32,000 nt of DNA from NCBI RefSeq assembly GCF_000484535.1, contig NC_022600.1:3990234-4022233 (forward strand). The letters run 5' to 3'. The notes under the pieces were generated by a model that made no database searches, was not told where the DNA came from, and saw nothing but the letters and a program-made list of their open reading frames with translations. This document shows, in pieces, positions 2 to 10,253 of this stretch. How positions within the stretch are numbered: position 1 is the first letter of the stretch; every line of letters starts with the position of its first letter. This DNA comes from Gloeobacter kilaueensis JS1. Its GTDB lineage: Bacteria; Cyanobacteriota; Cyanobacteriia; Gloeobacterales; Gloeobacteraceae. Made by a program: the position numbers and the translations under genes.

Positions 2-826
2 GTGCAACTGGCCCGCGCCGATTACGAGCGCGAGAGCGCTCTCTACAAAAAAGGGATCAGTGCGCAGCGCGAGCAGCAGGCGGCCTTGGCCAGGCTCGAC
101 GGCACCCTCTCAGAACTGGCGGCGGCAAAATCGACCGAGGCGGCGGCCCGTTCCAGCCTGCAGGCGGCCCGCGCGCGTTTGAACGCCCTGCGCCAGGCCA
201 CCGGCAGCAGCATCACCGACGAACTTGCCCTTAAAAGTCCGGTCAGCGGCATCGTCGTCTCCCGGATGATCCAGCCAGGCCAGGTGGTCAACCCGGCCAC
301 CGCCGGAACCAGCAACGCCGAGGACCATCTGTTTACGATTACAAGCCTCGCCGAAGTCTGGGCAATGCTCGAAGTGCCCCAATCGGAGGTGGCGGGCCTC
401 AAGCTCGGCGCGCCGGTGCAATTTACGAGCGAAGTCGCCCCCGGCGAAGCGTTCAAAGGCCGGATCATCCGGCTGGGTGAAACCTTCGATCCCCAGGCGC
501 GTACGGCCAGTGTCCGCGTCGCCATCGCCAACCCGCACGGTACTCTCAAGCCGGGAATGCTCGTGCTCGCCCAGGCGATCTCCGGCGGCAGTGCCCGGCC
601 AGTGCTGGCGGTGCCCACCGCCGCCATCCAGCAGATAGACGGCAAGGACGTGGTCTTTGTGCGCACCGCACCCCACCGCTACCGCCAGCAACCGGTGGTG
701 CTGGGCGAGCGCAACGCTCAGCTTACCCAGATCGTCTCCGGTCTTACGGCGGGTACCGAAGTGGTGAGCGACGGCTCCTTCGTCCTCAAATCGGAAGCCC
801 TCAAGGCCACCCTGGAGGGCGAGTAA
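2..826 (+). CDS. RND efflux periplasmic adaptor (membrane-fusion protein, HlyD/CzcB-like); 5' end cut by window edge
   Basis: The frame is open from the window start. An Ala/Gln/Arg-rich coiled-coil hairpin (AAKSTEAAARSSLQAARARLNALRQ) is followed by lipoyl/beta-barrel-type segments (LKSPVSGIVVSRMIQPGQVV, FKGRIIRLGETFDPQARTASVRVAIANP, LKPGMLVLAQ). The stop overlaps the pump ATG (TAATG at 824-828), which is typical adaptor-pump coupling. Confidence 0.85.
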   Translation: MQLARADYERESALYKKGISAQREQQAALARLDGTLSELAAAKSTEAAARSSLQAARARLNALRQATGSSITDELALKSPVSGIVVSRMIQPGQVVNPATAGTSNAEDHLFTITSLAEVWAMLEVPQSEVAGLKLGAPVQFTSEVAPGEAFKGRIIRLGETFDPQARTASVRVAIANPHGTLKPGMLVLAQAISGGSARPVLAVPTAAIQQIDGKDVVFVRTAPHRYRQQPVVLGERNAQLTQIVSGLTAGTEVVSDGSFVLKSEALKATLEGE

Positions 827-3800
827 TGACCAGAGCCCTCGATCGCGAGAATGCGCGCCTCACCCAGCCACCGGCCCCTTCGGGCCTGCTGGAACGGCTG
901 GTGATCGGGGCGCTCAAATTTCGCGTCCTGGTCCTCGCTGCCACGCTGCTTGCGGTGCTGGGCGGCGTCTACGCCTTTCTAAACCTGCGGGTCGATGCGG
1001 TGCCCGACATCTCCAACATCCAGGTGACGGTCACCACCAACGCCCGTGGCCTCGCTCCCCAGGAGACCGAACAGTACATTACCTATCCGATCGAGCTGGC
1101 GCTGCAGGGGATGCCGCACCTGACGCGGCTGCGATCGATCTCCAAGTACGCCCTCTCGCAGGTAACGGCGGTCTTCGAGGACGGCACCGACATCTACTGG
1201 GCCAGACAACAGGTCTCCGAGCGCCTGAAGACGGCAGAAAGTGCAATTCCTAAAAGTATCGACGCCCAGATCGCCCTCGGTCCCATCGCCACCGGCCTCG
1301 GCGAGGTCTACCAGTTCGAGGTGCGCGGCTCCGGCTACAGTCTGATGCAGCTAAGGGACATCCTCGACTGGCAGATCATTCCGGCCCTGAAGAGCGTGCC
1401 GGGGGTGGACGAAGTCGAGGCGATGGGCGGGGCGGCAAAAGAGTATCAAGTCTGGCTGGAGCCGGAGAAGCTCCACGGCTACCACATCATGCCCACCGAG
1501 GTGATGCGGGCGCTGGAGAACAACAACGCCAACGCCGGAGGCGGCTACGCGGTCGATAACAACAACCAGGTGCTGCTCAGGGGCGAGGCGCTGTTGCGCA
1601 ACGTGGGCGACATCGGCAACGTCATGGTCCACCGCGACGCGAAGGGCGTGGTGCGCGTGCGCGATTTGGGCCGGGTGGTGGAGGGCAAAAAGCTCTCCCA
1701 GAGCATCGTCACCCAGAACGGCGAGGGCGAGACGGTGATCGGCATCGTCCTGATGCGCAAGGGCGAAAATTCGGAGCAGGTCGTCCGCCGGGTGCAGGCC
1801 AAACTCGACGCCCTCGCTCCGACCCTGCCCCCCAACGTCCGGGTCGTCACCTTCTACAATCGCGGCACGCTCATCGACCGGACGATCGACACGGTCTGGC
1901 ACAACCTGGCAGTCGGTGCCCTGCTGGTGGTCGTCGTCCTCTTCGTCGTCCTGGGCAACCTGCGCGGCGGCCTCATCGCTGCCCTCGCGATTCCGATCGC
2001 CCTGCTGGGAGCGATCGCCTTTCTTGTCATCACCAACACCTCCGGCAACCTGCTCAGCCTCGGGGCGATCGACTTTGGGATTTTAATCGACGGTTCGGTG
2101 GTGATGGTCGAGAACATCCTGCGGCGGCTTAGCGAGGCCAAACCGCGCGATGCGGCAGAACAACTGGCCGTCGTCGAGCGGGCGAGCGCGGAGGTGGCGC
2201 GGCCCATCTTCTTTGCGGTGCTCATCATCACCGTCGTCTACGTGCCGATTTTGTTTTTGACCGGCGTGGCGGGCAAGACCTTTCAGCCGATGGCCCTTAC
2301 CGTCGTCTTCGGTCTGCTCGCAGCTCTTGTCATTGCCCTGTTTGTCACCCCGGCCCTTGCCTCTTTGCTGTTGGGCGAGCACCCCAAAGAAGAAGAAACC
2401 TTTTTGCTGCGCGCCCTCAGGCCCATTTACACCCGTGCCCTCGACTGGTGCCTTGGCCGTCCCTGGCCGACGGCTCTGGTTGCGGTGGGGTTATTTGCCG
2501 CGAGCCTCACCCTGATTCCGGGTCTGGGTACCGAATTTATTCCCACCCTCAAAGAAGGCTCGATCGTTCTCACGGTCGATCGCCCCGTATCCGGCTCGCT
2601 CTCGGCGGCGGCGGCCCAGACGACGCTCATGGAAAAAGTCGTGCGCACCTTCCCGGATGTCGAGACGGTCGTCGCGAGGAGCGGCCACCCGGAGCAGGCG
2701 TTCGATCCGATGGGTCCGGAGGAGACGGACTTTTTTATCATCCTCAAGCCCCAGGAACAGTGGACCACCGCTCGCACCCAGCAGGAGATCGAGGAGGCGA
2801 TCGCCAAAAAACTTGACCAGGAGGTGCCCGGCGCAGCGATCGCCTTCGGTCAGCCCATCGAGCAGCGGATGAACGAACTGGTCTCCGGGGCCAAGGGCGA
2901 CGTGGCCATCCGCATCTTTGGGCCGGATCTGGATATCCTGCGCAAGCTCGGCCTGCAGATAGCGGGAGCGGTGGGCCGCGTGGCGGGGGCGAGCGATGTC
3001 AAAGTCGAGCAGGTGGCGGGCCTGCCGGTGGTGAGCGCCCAGATCAAGCAGGCTGCCCTCTCCGCCTACGGCGTCACCGCTCAAGACGCCCTCGATACGA
3101 TCTCCGCCGCCGTAGACGGCAAGATCGTGGGTACGATCTTTCAGGGCAAACCGCGCTACGACCTCACGGTGCGCTTCGCCCCGGACGCCCTCAGTCGGCC
3201 CGAAGACCTGGGTACCCTGCCGGTGGCGATGTCCGAAGGCGACCTGGTTCCGCTTTCCCAGGTGGCGAACATCCGCCGCGTCGAGAGCGCCGCCGAAATT
3301 GCCCACCTCGAAGGCGACCGCAACCTGACCGTTCAGCTGAACGTCAATGGCCGCGACCTGGGCGGCTTTGTAGCAGCAGCCCAGCAGGCCGTGCGCGACA
3401 AAGTGGCCCTGCCCGCCGGTTATCGGCTGGAGTGGGGCGGCCAGTTCGAGAATCTCCAGGAGGCAGAATCCCGCCTGTTTATCCTCGTGCCCCTCTCCCT
3501 TGCCCTGATATTCATTCTTCTCTACGCCTCCTTCGGCAGCCTGCAGCCTGGCATATTGATCTTCCTCAACATCCCCCTTGCCCTCACAGGCGGCCTGCTC
3601 GCCCTCGCCCTCAGAGGCATGTCTTTGTCTGTCACCGCCGGCGTCGGCTTTATTGCCCTGTTTGGGGTGGCGGTGCTCAACGGCGTCGTGCTCGTCTCCA
3701 CCATCCGCCGCATCGAGGCCGAGCAGCACCTCGAACCATTAGAGGCCGCCCGTGCCGGAGCCGAGTTGCGCCTCAGGCCCGTCTTGATGACCGCCCTGGT

Positions 3801-3975
3801 CGCCTCGCTGGGTTTCATTCCGATGGCTGTCGCCACCTCCGTCGGTGCCGAAGTGCAGCGCCCCCTCGCCACCGTCGTCATCGGCGGCCTGATCACCGCC
3901 ACCCTCCTCACCCTGCTGGTATTGCCCAGCCTCTACCCGGTGATCTGTGGCCGGCGCAGTTCGAAGCGAGCCTGA
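826..3975 (+). CDS. Heavy-metal-efflux type RND inner-membrane pump (CzcA/CusA family)
   Basis: The 1049-aa product has the RND layout of an N-terminal TM helix, a large periplasmic loop and TM bundles, repeated twice. Family-typical strings include VTVTTNARGLAPQETEQYITYPIE, GAIDFGILIDGSVVMVENI and VQRPLATVVIGGLITATLLTLLVLPSLY. It is coupled to the upstream adaptor. Metal specificity cannot be read from the sequence. Confidence 0.93.
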   Translation: MTRALDRENARLTQPPAPSGLLERLVIGALKFRVLVLAATLLAVLGGVYAFLNLRVDAVPDISNIQVTVTTNARGLAPQETEQYITYPIELALQGMPHLTRLRSISKYALSQVTAVFEDGTDIYWARQQVSERLKTAESAIPKSIDAQIALGPIATGLGEVYQFEVRGSGYSLMQLRDILDWQIIPALKSVPGVDEVEAMGGAAKEYQVWLEPEKLHGYHIMPTEVMRALENNNANAGGGYAVDNNNQVLLRGEALLRNVGDIGNVMVHRDAKGVVRVRDLGRVVEGKKLSQSIVTQNGEGETVIGIVLMRKGENSEQVVRRVQAKLDALAPTLPPNVRVVTFYNRGTLIDRTIDTVWHNLAVGALLVVVVLFVVLGNLRGGLIAALAIPIALLGAIAFLVITNTSGNLLSLGAIDFGILIDGSVVMVENILRRLSEAKPRDAAEQLAVVERASAEVARPIFFAVLIITVVYVPILFLTGVAGKTFQPMALTVVFGLLAALVIALFVTPALASLLLGEHPKEEETFLLRALRPIYTRALDWCLGRPWPTALVAVGLFAASLTLIPGLGTEFIPTLKEGSIVLTVDRPVSGSLSAAAAQTTLMEKVVRTFPDVETVVARSGHPEQAFDPMGPEETDFFIILKPQEQWTTARTQQEIEEAIAKKLDQEVPGAAIAFGQPIEQRMNELVSGAKGDVAIRIFGPDLDILRKLGLQIAGAVGRVAGASDVKVEQVAGLPVVSAQIKQAALSAYGVTAQDALDTISAAVDGKIVGTIFQGKPRYDLTVRFAPDALSRPEDLGTLPVAMSEGDLVPLSQVANIRRVESAAEIAHLEGDRNLTVQLNVNGRDLGGFVAAAQQAVRDKVALPAGYRLEWGGQFENLQEAESRLFILVPLSLALIFILLYASFGSLQPGILIFLNIPLALTGGLLALALRGMSLSVTAGVGFIALFGVAVLNGVVLVSTIRRIEAEQHLEPLEAARAGAELRLRPVLMTALVASLGFIPMAVATSVGAEVQRPLATVVIGGLITATLLTLLVLPSLYPVICGRRSSKRA

Positions 3976-3985
3976 AGTCAGCTAT
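3929..3985 (+). repeat. Direct-repeat copy A: the authentic 3' terminus of the RND pump CDS plus 10 nt downstream
   Basis: It shares a 22-nt perfect block (gcctctacccggtgatctgtgg) and an 18-nt perfect block (gagcctgaagtcagctat) with 7365-7420, in the same order and orientation. Confidence 0.7.
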
Positions 3986-4712
3986 GAATTGTTCCGTCGG
4001 GCAAAATCGTACCTGTTAGCTTCGCTTCTTCGGTGAGATTGCCATCCCATACCGCACCGGTCAAATCCGCTTCTCTTAGATCGGCGTAGCTGAAGTCGCA
4101 GGCAGTGAGGTTGGCTCGGCGCAAATTTGTGCGGTACAAGATAGCGCCCATCAAATCCGATCCACTCAAATCCGCTTCGCTGAGATTGGCTGATTCCAGA
4201 CGACATCCTCGCATATCCGACTGCCGTAACAGCGCCCGGTTGAAATTTGCACCACCGGCCAGTGTCTCCAGCAGACGCGCCCGATCAAGACAGGCTCCCT
4301 GCAAATCTGCTTCTCTTAAATCTGTATTGTCGAGATTTGCTTCGGTCAAATCCGCGCCAACAAGCAGGGCTCCCCGCAGATCGGCAGTGCCAAGATCCAT
4401 AAATCGCAACGAACGGTTCTGTTCTGGCTGGTTCACTATTTCCCAAACCAGATGCCAGCGGGCATCCATGCGCGTGTTTTCGTCGATGAGAACTCCACGG
4501 AGGTTGACAGCACCAAGATACGTCCTGGAAAGGTTGGTTCCGCGTAAATCAGCGCGGTCGATACGGGCACCACCAAGATTCGCATCGCTGAGATCCAGAC
4601 CGCGTAAATCCGGTGAATCCATCGACACATGGACTTGGTGCCAATACCCTTTCAGCCATCGTCCAATAGTGTATGCTTGCAGTAGTTCTTCTACAGTACG
4701 AATTGTTTTCAT
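3978..4712 (-). CDS. Pentapeptide-repeat protein
   Basis: The 244-aa product has long runs of the A(D/N)LXX pentapeptide pattern (ADLRGTNLSRTYLGAVNLRG; ADLTEANLDNTDLREADLQGACLDRARL; ANLSEADLSGSDLMGAILYRTNLRRANLTACDFSYADLREADLTGA). It has an ATG start and lies 23 nt downstream of the protease gene on the same strand. Confidence 0.9.
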   Translation of the reverse strand: MKTIRTVEELLQAYTIGRWLKGYWHQVHVSMDSPDLRGLDLSDANLGGARIDRADLRGTNLSRTYLGAVNLRGVLIDENTRMDARWHLVWEIVNQPEQNRSLRFMDLGTADLRGALLVGADLTEANLDNTDLREADLQGACLDRARLLETLAGGANFNRALLRQSDMRGCRLESANLSEADLSGSDLMGAILYRTNLRRANLTACDFSYADLREADLTGAVWDGNLTEEAKLTGTILPDGTIHS

Positions 4713-4735
4713 GCCAATAAGACTACGTAGGAAAT

Positions 4736-6022
4736 CTACAGTACATCTTTAAATTCAAGAATGATGTTGAGCAGCTTATTCCTCCTTTTTACAATTAGGT
4801 GTACTTTGTTGTTTGGCAGCTGTTGGAGTTTATCTACAATCTCTTTGTGCGTCAATTTTCCATACGGTACTCCATCAATATTTAGGATCTGATCCCCTGA
4901 GCGTATGTCAGCGTGCTCAGCTAATCCTTTTCTTTCAATAGCTGTTACTTTCCCACTAGAAATATCAACGCTCATGCCAACAGCAACATAGTGAAAAGCT
5001 TCACCAAAACGCACACTTTTTCGCAAGGCAATTTGTCTATGTCTTACATCGAATATCACAAAAAAACGAGAGAGTATATCATTACCTATAACGCCAGCCG
5101 TGTCAGTAACTTCCGTTGACTTACTCGATTTCGATATTAATCCTATCAGAGGCTTTATAATCTCAAATTGCCCCAGCTTAAGCGCTGTCGCCCGTACTCT
5201 GTAGAGAACGTCTGTACCTCCAAGACCCTCTGTAGAGTACTTTCTTATGTTGGGGTAGCGCCTGTAAAGGTTGTTTCTTTCGACAAATGGTTGGTACAAC
5301 GTTAATGAGGTTGAAGAGCCAGTATCTATATCGAACCGAGCTGAAATGCCATCAATTTTTCCTTCAATGGCTGGCATTCCTAGCGAACTAACGACAAAGG
5401 GGAAGACGACGTTCTCGCAGTTGGGAGCTACTTTTTGTGAGTTATTGAAGTAAGCCTTCAAATTAATATAATCAAGTTGAATAAGGAAATTTTGAAAGAA
5501 ATCTAATCCGAGAATAGCATCAATTTTTGAAAGTGCTGAAGAGTCAGGCATTACTGCCGAAGGAAGCACACGTAGAATAGTTTTACTCAACTTCAAGTTA
5601 CCAATCTCAAGATTTTCTACTGTTGTTTCTTGAGATGTTTGTACAGGAGAACTTCCATTGCTCCCAATAAACTCAGGACGCATGAGAGAGCGGGTCGGCA
5701 ATCTAAGTTTTTGCGCAACTCTTTCAGATATGAAGTTAATGGTGGCCCCTGAGTCAAGGATAAGATTAAACGGTCCCTGACCATTTATGTACGCATCGAA
5801 TGCAATGAGCCCAGGAGGAGGAGAAGAACGAAAAGGAACAACAATTTCAGACTCAATTTGCTTCGCCTGGTAACTGTCAGCTTTACAAGCCGTAGAGCTA
5901 TAGATTTCTGCAAGTGCAGGAGTCGTCAAAAATGGCAGAATGAAAACCGCTTTTAAAGCAGTCTGTAGAAGAACAGAAGCAGAGCTACTGCTCACAGTTG
6001 CTTTTATCTGTTCGTGCTCCAC
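4736..6022 (-). CDS. Secreted aspartic protease with two retropepsin-like lobes and a C-terminal PDZ domain
   Basis: The 428-aa product has a GTG start and a signal-peptide-like N-terminus (KAVFILPFLTTPALA|E). Two aspartic-protease catalytic motifs lie in separate halves (LILDSGATINFIS near residue 88, FDIDTGSSTSLTL near residue 232). The C-terminus is PDZ-like (RSGDQILNIDGVPYGKLTHKEIVDKLQ). It has low G+C and A/T-ending codons. Confidence 0.8.
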   Translation of the reverse strand: MEHEQIKATVSSSSASVLLQTALKAVFILPFLTTPALAEIYSSTACKADSYQAKQIESEIVVPFRSSPPPGLIAFDAYINGQGPFNLILDSGATINFISERVAQKLRLPTRSLMRPEFIGSNGSSPVQTSQETTVENLEIGNLKLSKTILRVLPSAVMPDSSALSKIDAILGLDFFQNFLIQLDYINLKAYFNNSQKVAPNCENVVFPFVVSSLGMPAIEGKIDGISARFDIDTGSSTSLTLYQPFVERNNLYRRYPNIRKYSTEGLGGTDVLYRVRATALKLGQFEIIKPLIGLISKSSKSTEVTDTAGVIGNDILSRFFVIFDVRHRQIALRKSVRFGEAFHYVAVGMSVDISSGKVTAIERKGLAEHADIRSGDQILNIDGVPYGKLTHKEIVDKLQQLPNNKVHLIVKRRNKLLNIILEFKDVL

Positions 6023-7247
6023 CCCACGAGTTGAAGACTCCGCCAGAAAATTCTGGACTACCGTCTTTATCGACTCCAGCCGAAATACTCACTGTAGTCT
6101 TTCCACCGGGATGACTCTGGCATGTATCGACATTCACATGCGCGCCATCTTTGTTGATTTTAGTTTTAATATCCGTATATCCACCATCCACCTCTGGGTT
6201 GCTTGTACCAGTATTAGCAGGAGTAGTGGGTTTGGAAATAGGGCCACCTAAATCACCGGCTTTAGTGCTGAGCTTGTTTCCAACGCCTGTATCGTTGCCC
6301 GCTAGCAGAGTTGGGGTAGAGCCATTCTGTGTATCTGCCTTCTCTGGTAAACCTGTATAGGTCTCGCTGGAAGCAGTAACAAAGTTGCTTACTCCTGAAG
6401 GCATTCCATCGCAACCTTCAGCTATACCTGCTCTATTGTCAGCCGCAGTAGGATAGCTGACTTCTCCAGTTCTGACTTTGTCCTGATTGACTATTTGCAA
6501 GTTGAAATTCTCAAAGCCGTTGTCTAGGCCATATTCAAAACCGTTACTGTAGTAGCCTTGCTCGCCTGCAGCAACGAGCAGTGCGGGATCAACCGGCAGG
6601 CTCTGCTCGCCTTGAGAAACATTCCACTCGTCCCAACTATTATCCGGCAAGTCAAAGCCTGTATCGTTGCTGTCGTTGTCTACCTGTCCGTAATTGCCGA
6701 TCTCCTGCTCCCGGAGCGAGCCATAGGACTCCTCACCACTTAAGGCAGACTCTCCGTCAGCATCCTCGTACTGGTTGTAGCTGCTGGAAAAACTCGCGAA
6801 TCCTGTGTTTTGTTCTTCATCAAACGGATTAAAGCCGTATGCATCTTGCTGCTGGCTATACCCATAATTGTCAGCACTCTCGAAGTCTGTTTCTGGCTGC
6901 TGGTCAGAGGGGAAGTTGATGTTGTCCCAAATATCGCTATTGGGAAAGCCGAGGGCAGCATTGCCTATGAAAGCGCCCTGCTCACCGTACTGTGTATCTG
7001 TAGAGAAGTCGTAGTCAGTACCGTCACTTTCTAAGTACTGTTGCCCATAGCTGTTGTTGTCATCCACAAGATAGGACTGCTCGCCATCGCCAGCCTCTGT
7101 GTGCCCTTCCTCGTCAGTGCCGTTGCCAGACTCTGAATACTCTTGTTCGTCGCCTTCGCTTGCCGAATACTCTCGCTCGTTTTCGTTCCCGAAGCCATCG
7201 CCGGCAAAATTCTGCTGTTGTTCGCCAAAAAGGTTTTCCTCGTCCAT
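5985..7247 (-). CDS. Hyper-acidic low-complexity protein of unknown function, with no recognisable family
   Basis: The 420-aa ORF has an ATG start preceded by an AGGTG SD-like motif 5 nt upstream. It is the only long ORF in this interval and is co-directional with the protease, which it overlaps by 38 nt. By my count, residues 1-256 contain about 60 D/E but only 2 Arg and no Lys. They are rich in N/Q/G/S with interspersed Y/F/W. No signal peptide is apparent. Confidence 0.65.
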   Translation of the reverse strand: MDEENLFGEQQQNFAGDGFGNENEREYSASEGDEQEYSESGNGTDEEGHTEAGDGEQSYLVDDNNSYGQQYLESDGTDYDFSTDTQYGEQGAFIGNAALGFPNSDIWDNINFPSDQQPETDFESADNYGYSQQQDAYGFNPFDEEQNTGFASFSSSYNQYEDADGESALSGEESYGSLREQEIGNYGQVDNDSNDTGFDLPDNSWDEWNVSQGEQSLPVDPALLVAAGEQGYYSNGFEYGLDNGFENFNLQIVNQDKVRTGEVSYPTAADNRAGIAEGCDGMPSGVSNFVTASSETYTGLPEKADTQNGSTPTLLAGNDTGVGNKLSTKAGDLGGPISKPTTPANTGTSNPEVDGGYTDIKTKINKDGAHVNVDTCQSHPGGKTTVSISAGVDKDGSPEFSGGVFNSWGGARTDKSNCEQ

Positions 7248-7364
7248 GACGCACCTGCAGAAAGGGGTTGCTTCTGTGCAATGTAAGCCATTAATTTGGA
7301 GTCGTCAAGAACTATTCGGGGGAAATACAGTGTCTGGGGCAACCTGCTCAAGTTCGTTTTCGAT

Positions 7365-7420
7365 GCCTCTACCCGGTGATCTGTGGGCAGCGCGAGAAAA
7401 GAGAGCCTGAAGTCAGCTAT
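7365..7420 (+). repeat. Direct-repeat copy B: displaced, out-of-frame duplicate of the RND pump 3' terminus
   Basis: It has the same 22-nt and 18-nt perfect blocks as 3929-3985. They are separated by 16 nt here versus 17 nt in copy A, and that spacer sequence has diverged. No pump coding sequence lies upstream of it. Confidence 0.7.
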
Positions 7421-7553
7421 AGACCTCTTGCATGCATGTCCAGGAGCGGTGTCCGACGATGTGGTGGGCAAAACCTTTGTAAGAGCAAGTCGAGACGATG
7501 AATTTCTCGAACCGAGAAGTTAAACTTCCAAACAGTTGATCGAACAGTATGCG

Positions 7554-8126
7554 ATGATGCTAACTCCGCGAGTTCTCGAACAAGCCCTGGAAATTCTTGG
7601 AGAGTTACTTGCTGAGCGTGGGTCACCCTATGGGCTTGCTGTCATCGGGGGTGGAGGACTGGCTTTATTGGGACTGATAGACCGCGCTACGCGAGACATC
7701 GACGTGGTTGCCCGCGTAGAAGGTGCAGGGTACATCTCGGCTGAGCCCCTGCCGCCTGTGCTCAAAGAAGCGGTTGAGCAAACGGCTCTGCTGCTCGATC
7801 TGGATCGTAGCTGGCTGAATGGAGCCCCAACGGACCTCCTGCGGTTTGGCCTGCCCCAAGGTTTTCGAGAAAGAGCGCTGGTACGCCGATACAGTGCGCT
7901 GACCCTGCAACTTGCTAGTCGCTACGACCAGATTCACTTCAAATTATTCGCAGCGGTGGATCAAGGAGCAAAGAGTAAACACTTCGCGGATCTCAAGCGA
8001 CTACAGCCATCGACGGAGGAGTTGCTGGCAGCCGCTCGCTGGTGTCTGATTCAGGCCGGTGGGATCGAGGGTGATCTGCGTGCGGCTCTAAGCGCACTGG
8101 GGGTACCGGGCGATGTCGAGCTTTAG
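7554..8126 (+). CDS. Minimal nucleotidyltransferase-fold protein (pol-beta superfamily; AbiEii/DUF6036-like)
   Basis: The N-terminal motif hGGGGLALLGLIDRATRDIDVV matches the G-[GS]...D-x-D signature of pol-beta-fold NTases. A downstream helical part (DQIHFKLFAAVDQGAKSKHFADLKRL) resembles the second half of AbiEii-type proteins. The ORF opens at TTG 7536, and the first ATGs are at 7554 and 7557, so the start is uncertain. The 3' end overlaps the next gene by 14 nt. Confidence 0.7.
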   Translation: MMLTPRVLEQALEILGELLAERGSPYGLAVIGGGGLALLGLIDRATRDIDVVARVEGAGYISAEPLPPVLKEAVEQTALLLDLDRSWLNGAPTDLLRFGLPQGFRERALVRRYSALTLQLASRYDQIHFKLFAAVDQGAKSKHFADLKRLQPSTEELLAAARWCLIQAGGIEGDLRAALSALGVPGDVEL

Positions 8127-9081
8127 AGAACAGTTGTCGGAGTACACTTTGCTGCTGCTCTGGAGTTTGTGGACAGAGTTAGGAGTAGCTGGGCTTCATC
8201 GATACCACACCGATTGCCTGGTTGATCCGGAAGCACTGGTCCTGCTCACTGGCTGGCTGGGCCAGTCAGATCCGAGGTTGCAGGAGGAAGTGTTTTCCGA
8301 TTGGTGCCGCCGCTACGGAAATCTCCTGTCACTACAGCGCGTTTATGGCCTGGCAAAATCTTTTGATTATTTAGATCTCAAAGACTCATTTGATTTGATT
8401 GCGCAATCGCTGGATAAGAAACCTCCCAGGCATCTAACTCAGCAGATGCACAGTGGTTCCAGCGGAAAGTCCCGGCTACCATCCTTGACTCAGCCTTCGC
8501 TACTGTTGCTGCGCCTGGCAGCTATTTTTGGGGTTGGCAACCGGACCGTAACGATTGCCGCTTTACTGGCTGAACCGAATGGTCTGAGCGCGTCGGATAT
8601 TGCTTTTATCTGCGGTTATAGCAAGCGCAATGTGGCGAATACGCTGGAAGCGCTGCACCTGGGAGGCTTGCTTCACAAACTAGAAGTCAAAAACAGGCTC
8701 CAATACCATCTGACCAAGTCCAAGCAACTGCTGAGCCTGATTGGTCCACTGCCTGAGAACATGACCGGCTGGCTCTTTGTATTCAGTTTTATAGCGCTCT
8801 GGACCCACTATTCCCAGCAGAACGACGGAGCTTCCACGCTGAGGCGGGCAGTATCTGCCGTGAAATTGATGAAGGGGATGCATTCTGTTCTTACCCTGAT
8901 CGGCTGTTCGCCGCCGATCCTGGAAGGCGAGCCAGAGAAAGATCTGGAGCAAATCGAGGTGTGGGTTCTACGGACAAATGCTGAAATTGCAAAGGGTACC
9001 TCGGTTCTACTGAAACACTCCTTTCTGTTGCCGCCCCTAACTGCGGACTTCTTTATAAGAGACATTCAACCTTCACGGTAA
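8113..9081 (+). CDS. Winged-helix (ArsR/MarR-like wHTH) domain protein of unknown function, partner of the NTase
   Basis: The 322-aa product has an ATG start lying inside the end of the upstream gene. A central wHTH-like segment is present (TVTIAALLAEPNGLSASDIAFICGYSKRNVANTLEALHLGGLLHKLEVKNRLQYHLT). The N-terminal ~130 aa and C-terminal ~110 aa are unrecognised. Confidence 0.6.
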   Translation: MSSFREQLSEYTLLLLWSLWTELGVAGLHRYHTDCLVDPEALVLLTGWLGQSDPRLQEEVFSDWCRRYGNLLSLQRVYGLAKSFDYLDLKDSFDLIAQSLDKKPPRHLTQQMHSGSSGKSRLPSLTQPSLLLLRLAAIFGVGNRTVTIAALLAEPNGLSASDIAFICGYSKRNVANTLEALHLGGLLHKLEVKNRLQYHLTKSKQLLSLIGPLPENMTGWLFVFSFIALWTHYSQQNDGASTLRRAVSAVKLMKGMHSVLTLIGCSPPILEGEPEKDLEQIEVWVLRTNAEIAKGTSVLLKHSFLLPPLTADFFIRDIQPSR

Positions 9082-9207
9082 GAGAGTGTTTGCAAGCCAG
9101 ATTCTAAGCAGACGAAGGCGATTAAACGTCAGCTCCAAGCAGCCCTATGTCCCTTGCAGCAGAAGAAAAATAAGACGAGTCTGCAACTGACTCCACCCAT
9201 CCCGCCT

Positions 9208-9320
9208 GCAGCCCAGTTACAGTGAACCCCCCCTCTTCTCCTCTGCCCGGCGGGGCAGCCCCCCATTCGGGGGGCAGGAGGAGGAGAGCGGGGGGCAGGG
9301 GGGGTGTGGAGGGGTGGGGA
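9208..9320 (+). repeat. GC-rich palindromic intergenic repeat, copy 1
   Basis: It shares the leader gcagcccagttac(a/g)gtgaacccccc with 19771-19862. It also shares polypyrimidine and polypurine arms (ctcttctcctctgccc ... gggcaggaggaggagag) able to form a long hairpin. This copy carries an extra inner hairpin (gcccccc-attc-ggggggc). It lies between convergent gene ends. Confidence 0.75.
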
Positions 9321-9464
9321 CCGTTTTAGCAAGCACCCAAAACCGCAAGCAACACGAGCGCCGAAGCGGATCAAGCTGCTCACACTTCAGCGTCTAATTA
9401 GACAAAGGAGGATGACAGGCAGCTGCTCAGAAGGCTGGCAAAAACATGATGTAAAAACACCCTC

Positions 9465-10253
9465 TCAGCCAGGTTCAAGGGTGATGTCCATCTGATAGAA
9501 CTTGAAGGTATTCTCCTCGCTCGGTTGGTCGCAGGCCACCAGACGATAGCGATCGAGCACGTCGGCTATAAAATCTGGCTTCTCGTGCTCCGGCAGACAC
9601 CATGTCCAGGCAACGAAGGTGACCTGACCGAAGGCGAAGAATGCCTCGCGGGAACCGAAATCCCAGGCTTTGTCCGCCGTGCGCAGGTGCAGGATTTTCA
9701 GGCCGTTTTGCTCGGCTCTGGCTGCATACTGCTCCGGTGTCAGGTGCAGATAAGGATCGCGGAAATCTTGAAAGGAGGTGGACCAGCGGGGCGATTGTCG
9801 CGTCTGCTCAAGCACGTCTTCGAGGCTCGGGCGCTCGCCTTTGGGGACGAGGCGGAGTTGGGCCCGGCCATGGGGACGCAGGGCAGTGTGAATGGAATGT
9901 AAAGCAGCATCCTGCTCGGGTATCCAGTGGAGGGCGTTGAAGGAGACGATGAGATCGAATTCGCTCTTGAAGGGCAGGTGGCGGGCATCGGCCACCTCAA
10001 AGCGCAGCCGGGGCCAGTCGGCGGGGGCAAAGTGTGACGAGGCGAAGCTAATCATCTGCTCGGAGCTATCGATGCCCAAGACCGCTCCTGCAGGAACGCG
10101 CTCAGCGATCTGCGCGGTAATCTTGCCGTTGCCGCAGCCGATATCGAGCACTTGCTCTGTACCGTCGAGTTTCAGCAAAGCCAGCACCTCGTCGGCCATC
10201 GCGCGCTGCAGTGCCGATATCTGGGTGTACTGGGCGGCGTTCCATTCGACCAC
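9465..10253 (-). CDS. Class I SAM-dependent methyltransferase (trans-aconitate methyltransferase/Tam-like)
   Basis: The 262-aa product has a GTG start with AAGGAG 6 nt upstream. The N-terminal W-N-x-x-x-Y segment and SAM motif I (VLDIGCGNGKIT) are followed by GIDSSEQMI and FDLIVSFNALHWIP, as in Tam-type enzymes. Confidence 0.85.
   Translation of the reverse strand: MVEWNAAQYTQISALQRAMADEVLALLKLDGTEQVLDIGCGNGKITAQIAERVPAGAVLGIDSSEQMISFASSHFAPADWPRLRFEVADARHLPFKSEFDLIVSFNALHWIPEQDAALHSIHTALRPHGRAQLRLVPKGERPSLEDVLEQTRQSPRWSTSFQDFRDPYLHLTPEQYAARAEQNGLKILHLRTADKAWDFGSREAFFAFGQVTFVAWTWCLPEHEKPDFIADVLDRYRLVACDQPSEENTFKFYQMDITLEPG

Follow-up and report, generated by a model that had tools for sequence, protein, structure and literature searches.

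The 32-kb stretch of Gloeobacter kilaueensis JS1 DNA analysed here (32,000 nucleotides of contig NC_022600.1, hereafter the window) carries a cassette of two overlapping genes, which encode a nucleotidyltransferase (NTase) and a 322-aa winged helix-turn-helix (wHTH) protein, hereafter the partner. The cassette probably is a self-contained toxin-antitoxin (TA) or abortive-infection-type module that resembles AbiE and MenAT but is built from other families and in the opposite gene order. This reading is based on three sets of observations: a coupled two-gene cassette in which an intact AbiEii/MenT-like NTase is joined to a predicted DNA-binding partner with its own candidate operator; a slow-evolving enzyme combined with a fast-evolving partner, with solo partners but no solo enzyme; and a patchy distribution with variable contexts and both duplicated and decaying copies. 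An earlier note, made from the letters of the window alone, had proposed that the pair is an AbiE/TA-like variant, uncharacterised so far, in which the gene order is reversed and the wHTH partner unusual. The proposal is supported, and "variant, not member" is the fitting wording, because the partner shows no relationship to AbiEi and the system is not recognised by PADLOC.

The gene pair in the window

The open reading frame (ORF) check reproduced the two overlapping frames of the earlier note in coordinates, plus-strand orientation and overlap. Residue numbers of the NTase refer to the 190-aa form starting at ATG 7554, which is the form in the protein collection.

7536-8126, plus strand: NTase gene, 196 aa from TTG 7536 or 190 aa from ATG 7554; presumed toxin/effector
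8113-9081, plus strand: partner gene, 322 aa; three-domain wHTH protein of an unnamed family, presumed antitoxin and autorepressor
8113-8126, plus strand: 14-nt overlap of the NTase stop with the partner ATG

The 14-nt overlap suggests translational coupling of the NTase and the partner. The nearest relatives of the two proteins are Gll2951 (NTase, 69% identity) and Gll2950 (partner, 53%) of Gloeobacter violaceus.

Conservation and co-evolution of the pair

A profile of the NTase was scanned against one genome per species (185,579 species) and gave 407 loci, of which the best-scoring 80 were examined. In all 80, a same-strand ORF of the partner family follows the NTase directly (E = 1e-38 to 1e-115), and the same arrangement is found in the window and in two further loci, L002 and L003. 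A solo NTase was not seen in any of the best 80 genome loci. These belong to Actinomycetota (chiefly Solirubrobacterales, Conexibacter and Gaiellales), Planctomycetota, Myxococcota, Verrucomicrobiota, Gemmatimonadales (Gemmatimonadota), Elusimicrobiales (Elusimicrobiota) and Gloeobacterales. A scan of metagenomes with the partner profile yielded another 80 loci; three are cut by a contig end, and among the 77 testable ones the NTase lies directly upstream of the partner in 71, while the remaining six hold a solo partner. Over the genome and metagenome loci, the order NTase-then-partner is fixed in more than 150 cases, and stop and start codons overlap by 8-26 nt in 77 of 85 pairs. The adjacency of NTase and partner is far beyond chance. 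The earlier note had let its proposal depend on the two genes being neighbours in other genomes as well; they are found in the same order, with overlapping stop and start, in at least seven phyla.

The pairwise identities of the NTases and of their partners correlate (r = 0.90, Mantel p = 0.001). With a mean identity of 53% compared to 32% for the partner, the NTase is by far the slower-evolving of the two. The distribution of the cassette is mobile and patchy, with 407 loci in the 185,579 species genomes.

Some loci deviate from the single intact pair. The solo partner genes (L138, L150, L158 and L159, also L114 and L123) have no NTase upstream; four solo partners form a subfamily (ALDLAWSLWSELGV...RRHDWQAIDLEPL) adjoining a divergent gene for a membrane protein of ~320 aa, and this subfamily may represent a domesticated regulator. 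In a metagenome-assembled genome (MAG) of Actinomycetes (L082), two whole cassettes stand in tandem at 3971-5522 and ~6500-8055, each with its own TCT(C/T)G-N3-CGAGA site upstream at -12. A decaying cassette was found at 4640-5861 of L001, where the palindrome TTCTCGTTTCGAGAA has been kept together with most of the partner; residues ~1-17 of the NTase are fused to residues ~143-173, the catalytic core (~20-142) being deleted, and the conserved WSLWTELGV segment of the partner does not share the reading frame of its ATG. At 1 kb downstream there is a PhD/ParE pair. In L003 (4439-7606) the cassette (NTase 4439-5008, partner 5001-5906) is followed by a canonical AbiEi_4/AbiEii pair (6111-6689 and 6686-7606). 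Since the latter stands directly behind the cassette, two NTase-wHTH systems coexist as separate units in this locus.

The NTase is a distant, compact relative of AbiEii and MenT

The pol-beta NTase signature that had been recognised in the first protein, GGGGLALLGLIDRATRDIDVV, was found at residues 32-52 and reads G32-G33-G-G-L-A-L-L-G-L-I-D-R44-A-T46-R-D48-I-D50-V-V. The conserved motifs are located as follows.

7647-7703, plus strand: motifs I and II, G32-G33...R44-x-T46-x-D48-x-D50, with the glycine turn, the catalytic aspartates and a Thr at the AbiEii/MenT phospho-acceptor position
7920-7991, plus strand: motifs III and IV, R123-x-D125-Q...F129-K130-L131-x-A133..D136 and K142-H143-x-x-D146, corresponding to the AbiEii-type KLxA and +DxxD-like motifs

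In alignment A2 and in 78 non-redundant pairs, G32, G33, R44, T46, D48, D50, D125, K130, D136, H143 and D146 are invariant, as are the segments R123-x-D125-Q and F129-K130-L131-x-A133 in the 78 NTase homologues. The presence of catalytic acidic residues, on which the earlier note had made its proposal conditional, is borne out by D48, D50, D125/D136 and D146, which are all invariant together with G32-G33, K130 and T46. The four motifs described for AbiEii/DUF1814, hGG...DhD, KLxA and +DxxD (PMC3985639), recur in the NTase, as do the key residues of MenT1, T39, D41, K137 and D152 (PMC11375011). The spacing of the Lys and Asp is 16 residues here (K130 to D146) and 15 in MenT1 (K137/D152). T46 is located two residues ahead of the first catalytic Asp, D48. 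Upon antitoxin binding, AbiEii T65, MenT1 T39 and MenT3 S78 are auto-phosphorylated (PMC11375011, bioRxiv 10.64898/2026.01.19.700257), and judged by the motif layout T46 would be the positional equivalent of this phospho-acceptor.

The AlphaFold2 model of the NTase (predicted local distance difference test score, pLDDT, 95.2; predicted template modelling score, pTM, 0.89) displays an alpha-beta-alpha-beta NTase core followed by a helical bundle. All Foldseek matches in the PDB are weak and all are NTase-related. The best is a fungal NTase-like protein, 5uvd (E = 1.8e-3, template modelling (TM) score 0.47), and the NTase-like C-terminal domain of AbiEi is also among them, while no MenT1 or MenT4 structure is found among the matches listed. 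In HMMER searches of the PDB, with the single sequence and with the profile, 5uvd was the sole match (profile E = 0.005, over the GG...R-x-T-x-D-x-D region) and no MenT chain was matched.

At the family level, Pfam DUF6036 (PF19502) scores 20.2-20.3 bits with the NTase of the window, below its cut-off of 23.6. Among the relatives at E <= 0.01, 41 of 43 match DUF6036 and 37 of 43 match AbiEii, and NCBI labels the G. violaceus orthologue "DUF6036 family nucleotidyltransferase". Because the comparison with a canonical AbiEii aligns motifs I and II only, we regard the NTase as a distant, compact relative of AbiEii/MenT, in a DUF6036-type branch, rather than a clear member.

The partner is a three-domain wHTH protein of an unnamed family

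The AlphaFold2 model of the partner (pLDDT 92.5, pTM 0.90) consists of three domains, with a linker (residues 101-127) of lower confidence.

8113-8412, plus strand: N-terminal five-helix domain, residues 1-100, the most conserved part; putative NTase contact
8494-8712, plus strand: central ArsR/MarR-like wHTH, residues 128-200, with the recognition helix G-Y-S-K171-R172-N-V-A
8719-9012, plus strand: C-terminal helical domain, residues 203-300, with the conserved W220

The wHTH elements in the model are H143-153, H160-167, H171-183, E187-192 and E195-200. Pfam matches are limited to MarR_2, HTH_20 and ArsR over residues ~146-202, all below the gathering thresholds; the family profile matches the ArsR-family structure 2oqg with E = 7e-6, and ArsR, MarR and SmtB structures are among the Foldseek PDB matches. 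These results agree with the earlier view that a central ArsR/MarR-like wHTH is the only recognisable part of the protein. In Foldseek searches of the PDB and BFVD, the matches are essentially partial winged-helix/HTH alignments, all with E > 0.03. No AbiEi or Rv2827c structure and no full-length match occurs among the 50 PDB matches listed. The parts that had been left unassigned on either side proved to be conserved, confidently folded helical domains, neither of which has a fold match in the PDB or BFVD. Near-invariant residues of the N-domain are W17, W20, G24, D38, E40, L42, R55, L56, W64 and R76, and conservation extends to G140 and R144 at the start of the wHTH and to K171 and R172 in the recognition helix. 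The N-domain would be the part that contacts the NTase.

The homologues align end to end (alignment A1). The family is large: in an exhaustive profile search, 2510 representative clusters (about 2,500 at 50% identity) reached E <= 1e-3 and 1009 of them E <= 1e-30, with lengths of almost always ~300 aa; none of them is named, and no Pfam domain besides MarR_2 was found in them. The longest proteins of the family, of up to 1591 aa, likewise show no additional Pfam domain and no fusion partners. Neither NCBIfam nor PHROGs gave a meaningful match, and the N-domain was matched by no model of Pfam, NCBIfam or PHROGs. A weak match to PF21790 (OGG-like DNA glycosylase, E = 5e-4) in one of 31 relatives was taken as noise, as neither the family profile nor the fold searches matched a glycosylase. 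The partner departs from the usual ArsR/MarR architecture, in which the wHTH makes up the whole protein of ~100-150 aa, whereas here a protein of 322 aa has conserved helical domains of ~100 aa on both sides of it.

A candidate operator is conserved upstream of the cassette

A search for inverted repeats upstream of the NTase in all loci gave one palindrome repeatedly, and it was counted within 120 nt upstream of the NTase start in 83 loci. In the window, the following site was found.

7490-7518, no strand: candidate operator; palindrome TCTCG-N3-CGAGA at 7505-7517 (TCTCGAACCGAGA, TCTCG-AAC-CGAGA), extended form TTCTCGAACCGAGAA at 7504-7518

An additional half-site, TCGAGA, is present upstream at 7490-7495. 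From the start of the palindrome it is 31 nt to TTG 7536 and 49 nt to ATG 7554, and no other TCTCG-N3-CGAGA site with at most one mismatch occurs in the window. The palindrome recurs upstream of the cassette across phyla: the exact palindrome is found in 26 of the 83 loci, compared to ~0.02 expected (background 0.0002 per 130 nt), with at most one mismatch in 47 (~0.5 expected) and with at most two in 58 (~6.6 expected). The sites cluster at -12 and -28 from the start codon, and a second site is often located exactly 22 nt away, corresponding to two helical turns. Since the palindrome of the window fits the common -28 class when counted from TTG 7536, this codon is weakly favoured as the true NTase start.

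The palindrome is present in 36 of 53 cassettes with a K-R-N recognition helix, compared to one of 15 with another helix (Fisher p = 4e-5). This co-variation suggests that the wHTH of the partner is what binds the palindrome, which would make the partner an autorepressor. Consensus scans for a sigma-70 promoter or an intrinsic terminator near the cassette gave nothing above chance.

A toxin-antitoxin-like reading and its alternatives

In a TA-like module, the NTase, which by its motifs appears catalytically competent, would be the growth-arresting effector and would most likely add nucleotides to tRNA 3' ends, by analogy with MenT and AbiEii. Translation of the partner would be coupled to that of the NTase through the conserved stop/start overlap. 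The central wHTH of the partner would bind TCTCG-N3-CGAGA upstream of the genes and repress the operon, and its N- and/or C-terminal helical domains would bind and neutralise the NTase. By analogy, neutralisation could occur by sequestration or by triggered auto-phosphorylation of T46, as MenA1, MenA3 and AbiEi do.

Several results weigh against this scheme. Pfam AbiEii (PF08843) scores 22.8-23.0 bits with the NTase at a cut-off of 22.5 and aligns only residues 25-82, i.e. ~50 N-terminal residues, and hhalign against the canonical 306-aa AbiEii of L003 gives a probability of 32% over 47 columns that comprise motifs I and II only. The fold similarity to TglT/MenT3 (6j7q) is weak (Foldseek E = 0.06, TM 0.34), and ANT(2'')-Ia, a small-molecule NTase of 177 aa, scores like it (E = 0.08, TM 0.40). 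Among the PADLOC models the NTase finds no family at E <= 1 and the partner only a chance-level CARF match. Searches of PLSDB plasmids, INPHARED phages and IMG/VR contigs gave no copy; the immediate neighbours are heterogeneous and mostly housekeeping genes, with no clear defence islands. Solo NTases could exist among the other of the 407 loci, and no literature on DUF6036, gll2950 or gll2951 was found.

Part of these results would suit a non-toxic NTase whose substrate is a small molecule such as an antibiotic or metabolite, or which repairs or modifies RNA, combined with a ligand-sensing MarR/ArsR-like repressor whose extra domains bind an inducer and do not serve as an antitoxin. ANT(2'')-Ia is among the best fold matches, the helical domains beside the wHTH could bind a ligand, the conserved operator speaks for regulation and not for toxicity, and both the housekeeping neighbours and the missing plasmid and phage copies point the same way. 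We nevertheless consider such an enzyme-repressor pair unlikely. The motifs R-x-T-x-D-x-D, KLxA and +HxxD are those of the AbiEii/MenT branch, and Pfam matches AbiEii and DUF6036, not the aminoglycoside or lincosamide NTase families. Moreover, the conserved stop/start overlap and the co-evolution point to a stoichiometric protein pair, in which the most conserved domain of the partner, with its invariant Trp, Arg, Asp and Glu residues, tracks a highly conserved NTase. Solo partner genes occur while a solo enzyme was not seen, and the cassette is patchy, duplicated and at times decaying, like a selfish module. Quite unlikely, in our view, is a departure from the scheme in which the N-domain of the partner (W17, W20, D38, E40, R55, W64, R76) acts as a sensor or catalytic domain of a new kind, activating the NTase when triggered by, for instance, a phage protein or nucleic acid, or is the real substrate of the NTase.

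The order of the genes, with the NTase first and an overlap, is that of MntA-HepT, which raises the question of whether the roles are reversed as in this type VII system, i.e. whether the upstream NTase is an antitoxin that nucleotidylates and inactivates the downstream 322-aa protein as the toxin. The invariant charged residues D38, E40, R55 and R76 of the N-domain could form an active site for the latter. A reversal is highly unlikely, as the partner lacks the HEPN motif Rx4-6H and matches neither a nuclease nor a toxin by fold, and a predicted DNA-binding wHTH matched to a conserved operator is a hallmark of an antitoxin and autorepressor. Solo partners exist without an NTase, where an unguarded toxin should not be tolerated, and the NTase is of the AbiEii/MenT toxin lineage and not of the minimal MNT type. 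An ordinary AbiE pair that is merely mis-ordered or divergent would account for the Pfam AbiEii match just above the gathering score, for the same composition of wHTH protein plus NTase, and for the canonical AbiE pair that adjoins one cassette (L003). This we hold to be extremely unlikely. The partner is unlike the Pfam AbiEi families, whose models match neither it nor 31 relatives, unlike the AbiEi_4 of L003 (hhalign probability 0.8%) and unlike the AbiEi and Rv2827c structures, none of which occurs among the 50 PDB matches listed; its wHTH is central and not N-terminal. The NTase-to-partner order is fixed throughout the collected loci, the PADLOC AbiE models give nothing, and L003 contains a true AbiE pair in addition to the cassette, each as a unit of its own.

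Genomic surroundings

An RND pump gene occupies 826-3975 of the window, and its last ~56 bp (3929-3985) are repeated at 7365-7420. The displaced pump terminus reported in the earlier note is real: 7365-7386 matches 3929-3950 with 100% identity, and 7399-7420 matches 3964-3985 with 95%. Between the repeats lies a low-G+C (0.41-0.52) minus-strand block of ~3.4 kb, about 3986-7364, with three genes.

3978-4712, minus strand: pentapeptide-repeat gene
4736-6022, minus strand: aspartyl-protease/PDZ gene
5985-7247, minus strand: acidic low-complexity ORF without Pfam match

This block looks like an insertion that regenerated the pump terminus. The candidate operator (7505) is located ~85 bp past the displaced copy of the terminus; therefore, the cassette would have stood directly downstream of the pump gene before the insertion. 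Its G+C content of 0.53-0.55 is indeed intermediate, as had been noted, between the surrounding genome (0.61-0.67) and the insert (0.41-0.47 over 4500-6500).

Downstream of the cassette, the hairpin seen earlier was reproduced, with 9195-9330 folding at -87 kcal/mol (z = -4.35 compared to shuffles). This G+C-rich, composite hairpin contains the internal repeats CGGGGGGCAGGAGG and CGGGGGGCAGGGGG and separates the partner gene from a methyltransferase gene that converges on it (9465-10253, minus strand). It could serve as a terminator for both directions or represent a repeat element of the genome.

A third conserved gene was not found, the commonest neighbour cluster being present in 7 of ~84 loci. 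This cluster is an unannotated ORF family upstream on the same strand (2044-3612 of L043 and six other loci) and is too rare for a component of the system. The 143 immediate neighbours match 125 Pfam families, none of which is matched by more than three of them; PIN is matched by three, type I restriction-modification by two and DDE transposase by two. Contexts vary even within Gloeobacterales. In the window the cassette stands beside the RND pump gene. The G. violaceus pair gll2951/gll2950 (L084, BA000045.2 3139193-3160131) resides in a variable, TA/defence-like island that has no synteny with the window and includes Uma2, DUF433/DUF5615 (a TA-like pair), GMT-wHTH, DUF5131 and a 1044-aa AAA_11/AAA_12 helicase. 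In another Gloeobacterales MAG the cassette adjoins IS605 TnpA/TnpB.

Implications

NTase toxins of the AbiEii/MenT lineage are in current focus, owing to AbiE defence and the tRNA-modifying toxins of Mycobacterium tuberculosis, and their antitoxins are surprisingly diverse; AbiE has been described as the fourth most abundant phage-defence system (PMC11375011). The cassette adds a sizeable unnamed branch, presumably toxin-first, with a three-domain wHTH partner and a candidate operator conserved across phyla. With a toxic NTase whose T46 becomes phosphorylated upon co-expression with the partner, antitoxin-induced auto-phosphorylation would extend to a third, unrelated antitoxin fold; otherwise, a new mode of neutralisation would be indicated. 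Should the N-domain instead be a sensor, a catalytic domain or the substrate, the cassette would stand for a new class of immunity or regulation that relies on an NTase and is directed at a target different from tRNA. The family is large and clean, and cultured hosts make it testable, namely Gloeobacter violaceus PCC 7421 (gll2951/gll2950), Conexibacter spp. and Engelhardtia mirabilis.

Comparison with known systems

The best structural and profile match of the NTase, PDB 5UVD, is an NTase-like antigenic protein from the fungus Paracoccidioides brasiliensis, for which neither a paired partner nor a function is known, and the similarity is limited.

Like AbiE of Lactococcus and Streptococcus agalactiae (COG5340-COG2253), the cassette is a bicistronic operon of a pol-beta NTase and a wHTH protein. 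The NTase motifs GG...R-x-T-x-D-x-D, K-L-x-A and +DxxD-like are common to both, and the T65/D67/D69 layout of AbiEii matches T46/D48/D50. Both also have inverted repeats as an operator in the promoter region, in the cassette a candidate judged from the sequence and often present as two sites; AbiEi likewise binds two such repeats (PMC3985639). The gene order, however, is reversed, and the NTase has ~190 aa compared to the 306 aa of the canonical AbiEii of L003, with only ~50 residues alignable. AbiEi combines an N-terminal wHTH with an alpha/beta C-terminal domain, whereas the 322-aa partner has a central wHTH and all-helical flanks. Two defining features of AbiE, the AbiEi-type antitoxin and the antitoxin-first order, fail and the third, the PF08843 match, is borderline. 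Canonical AbiE membership was rejected, since the partner is not an AbiEi and the gene order is reversed. A wHTH protein with an NTase of the AbiEii superfamily (DUF1814) is also found in COG4861-COG4849 pairs such as MenAT2. In these, as in the COG5340-COG2253 pairs, the regulator comes first (PMC3985639), and the partner has no AbiEi-family Pfam match.

HepT-MntA (HEPN-MNT, type VII TA) shares NTase-first, overlapping genes with the cassette. In MntA-HepT the NTase gene comes first and the partner gene second, with an overlap; the NTase is the antitoxin and its partner a HEPN RNase, whereas the partner here is predicted to be a DNA-binding protein. A HEPN-MNT assignment was rejected because the partner lacks a HEPN domain: there is no Pfam or NCBIfam match to HEPN, no such fold match in the PDB or BFVD, and no His in the invariant or nearly invariant columns of alignment A1.

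In MenAT1 of M. tuberculosis (COG4849-type), the T39/D41/K137/D152 layout of MenT1 corresponds to T46/D48/K130/D146 of the NTase, which has no HMMER-detectable likeness to MenT chains. MenA1 is encoded upstream of MenT1, so that the antitoxin comes first, in contrast to the wHTH partner in second position here. MenA1 has no wHTH (bioRxiv 10.64898/2026.01.19.700257), and MenAT1 is not transcriptionally autoregulated (PMC11375011). MenT1 illustrates that toxins of this NTase lineage can be combined with antitoxins from unrelated families (PMC11375011), and since this is already known of MenT toxins, the cassette is not a conceptual surprise. Its novelty lies in a partner family of which two domains are orphans, in an NTase branch that is uncharacterised, in the inverted order of the genes and in a defined candidate operator.

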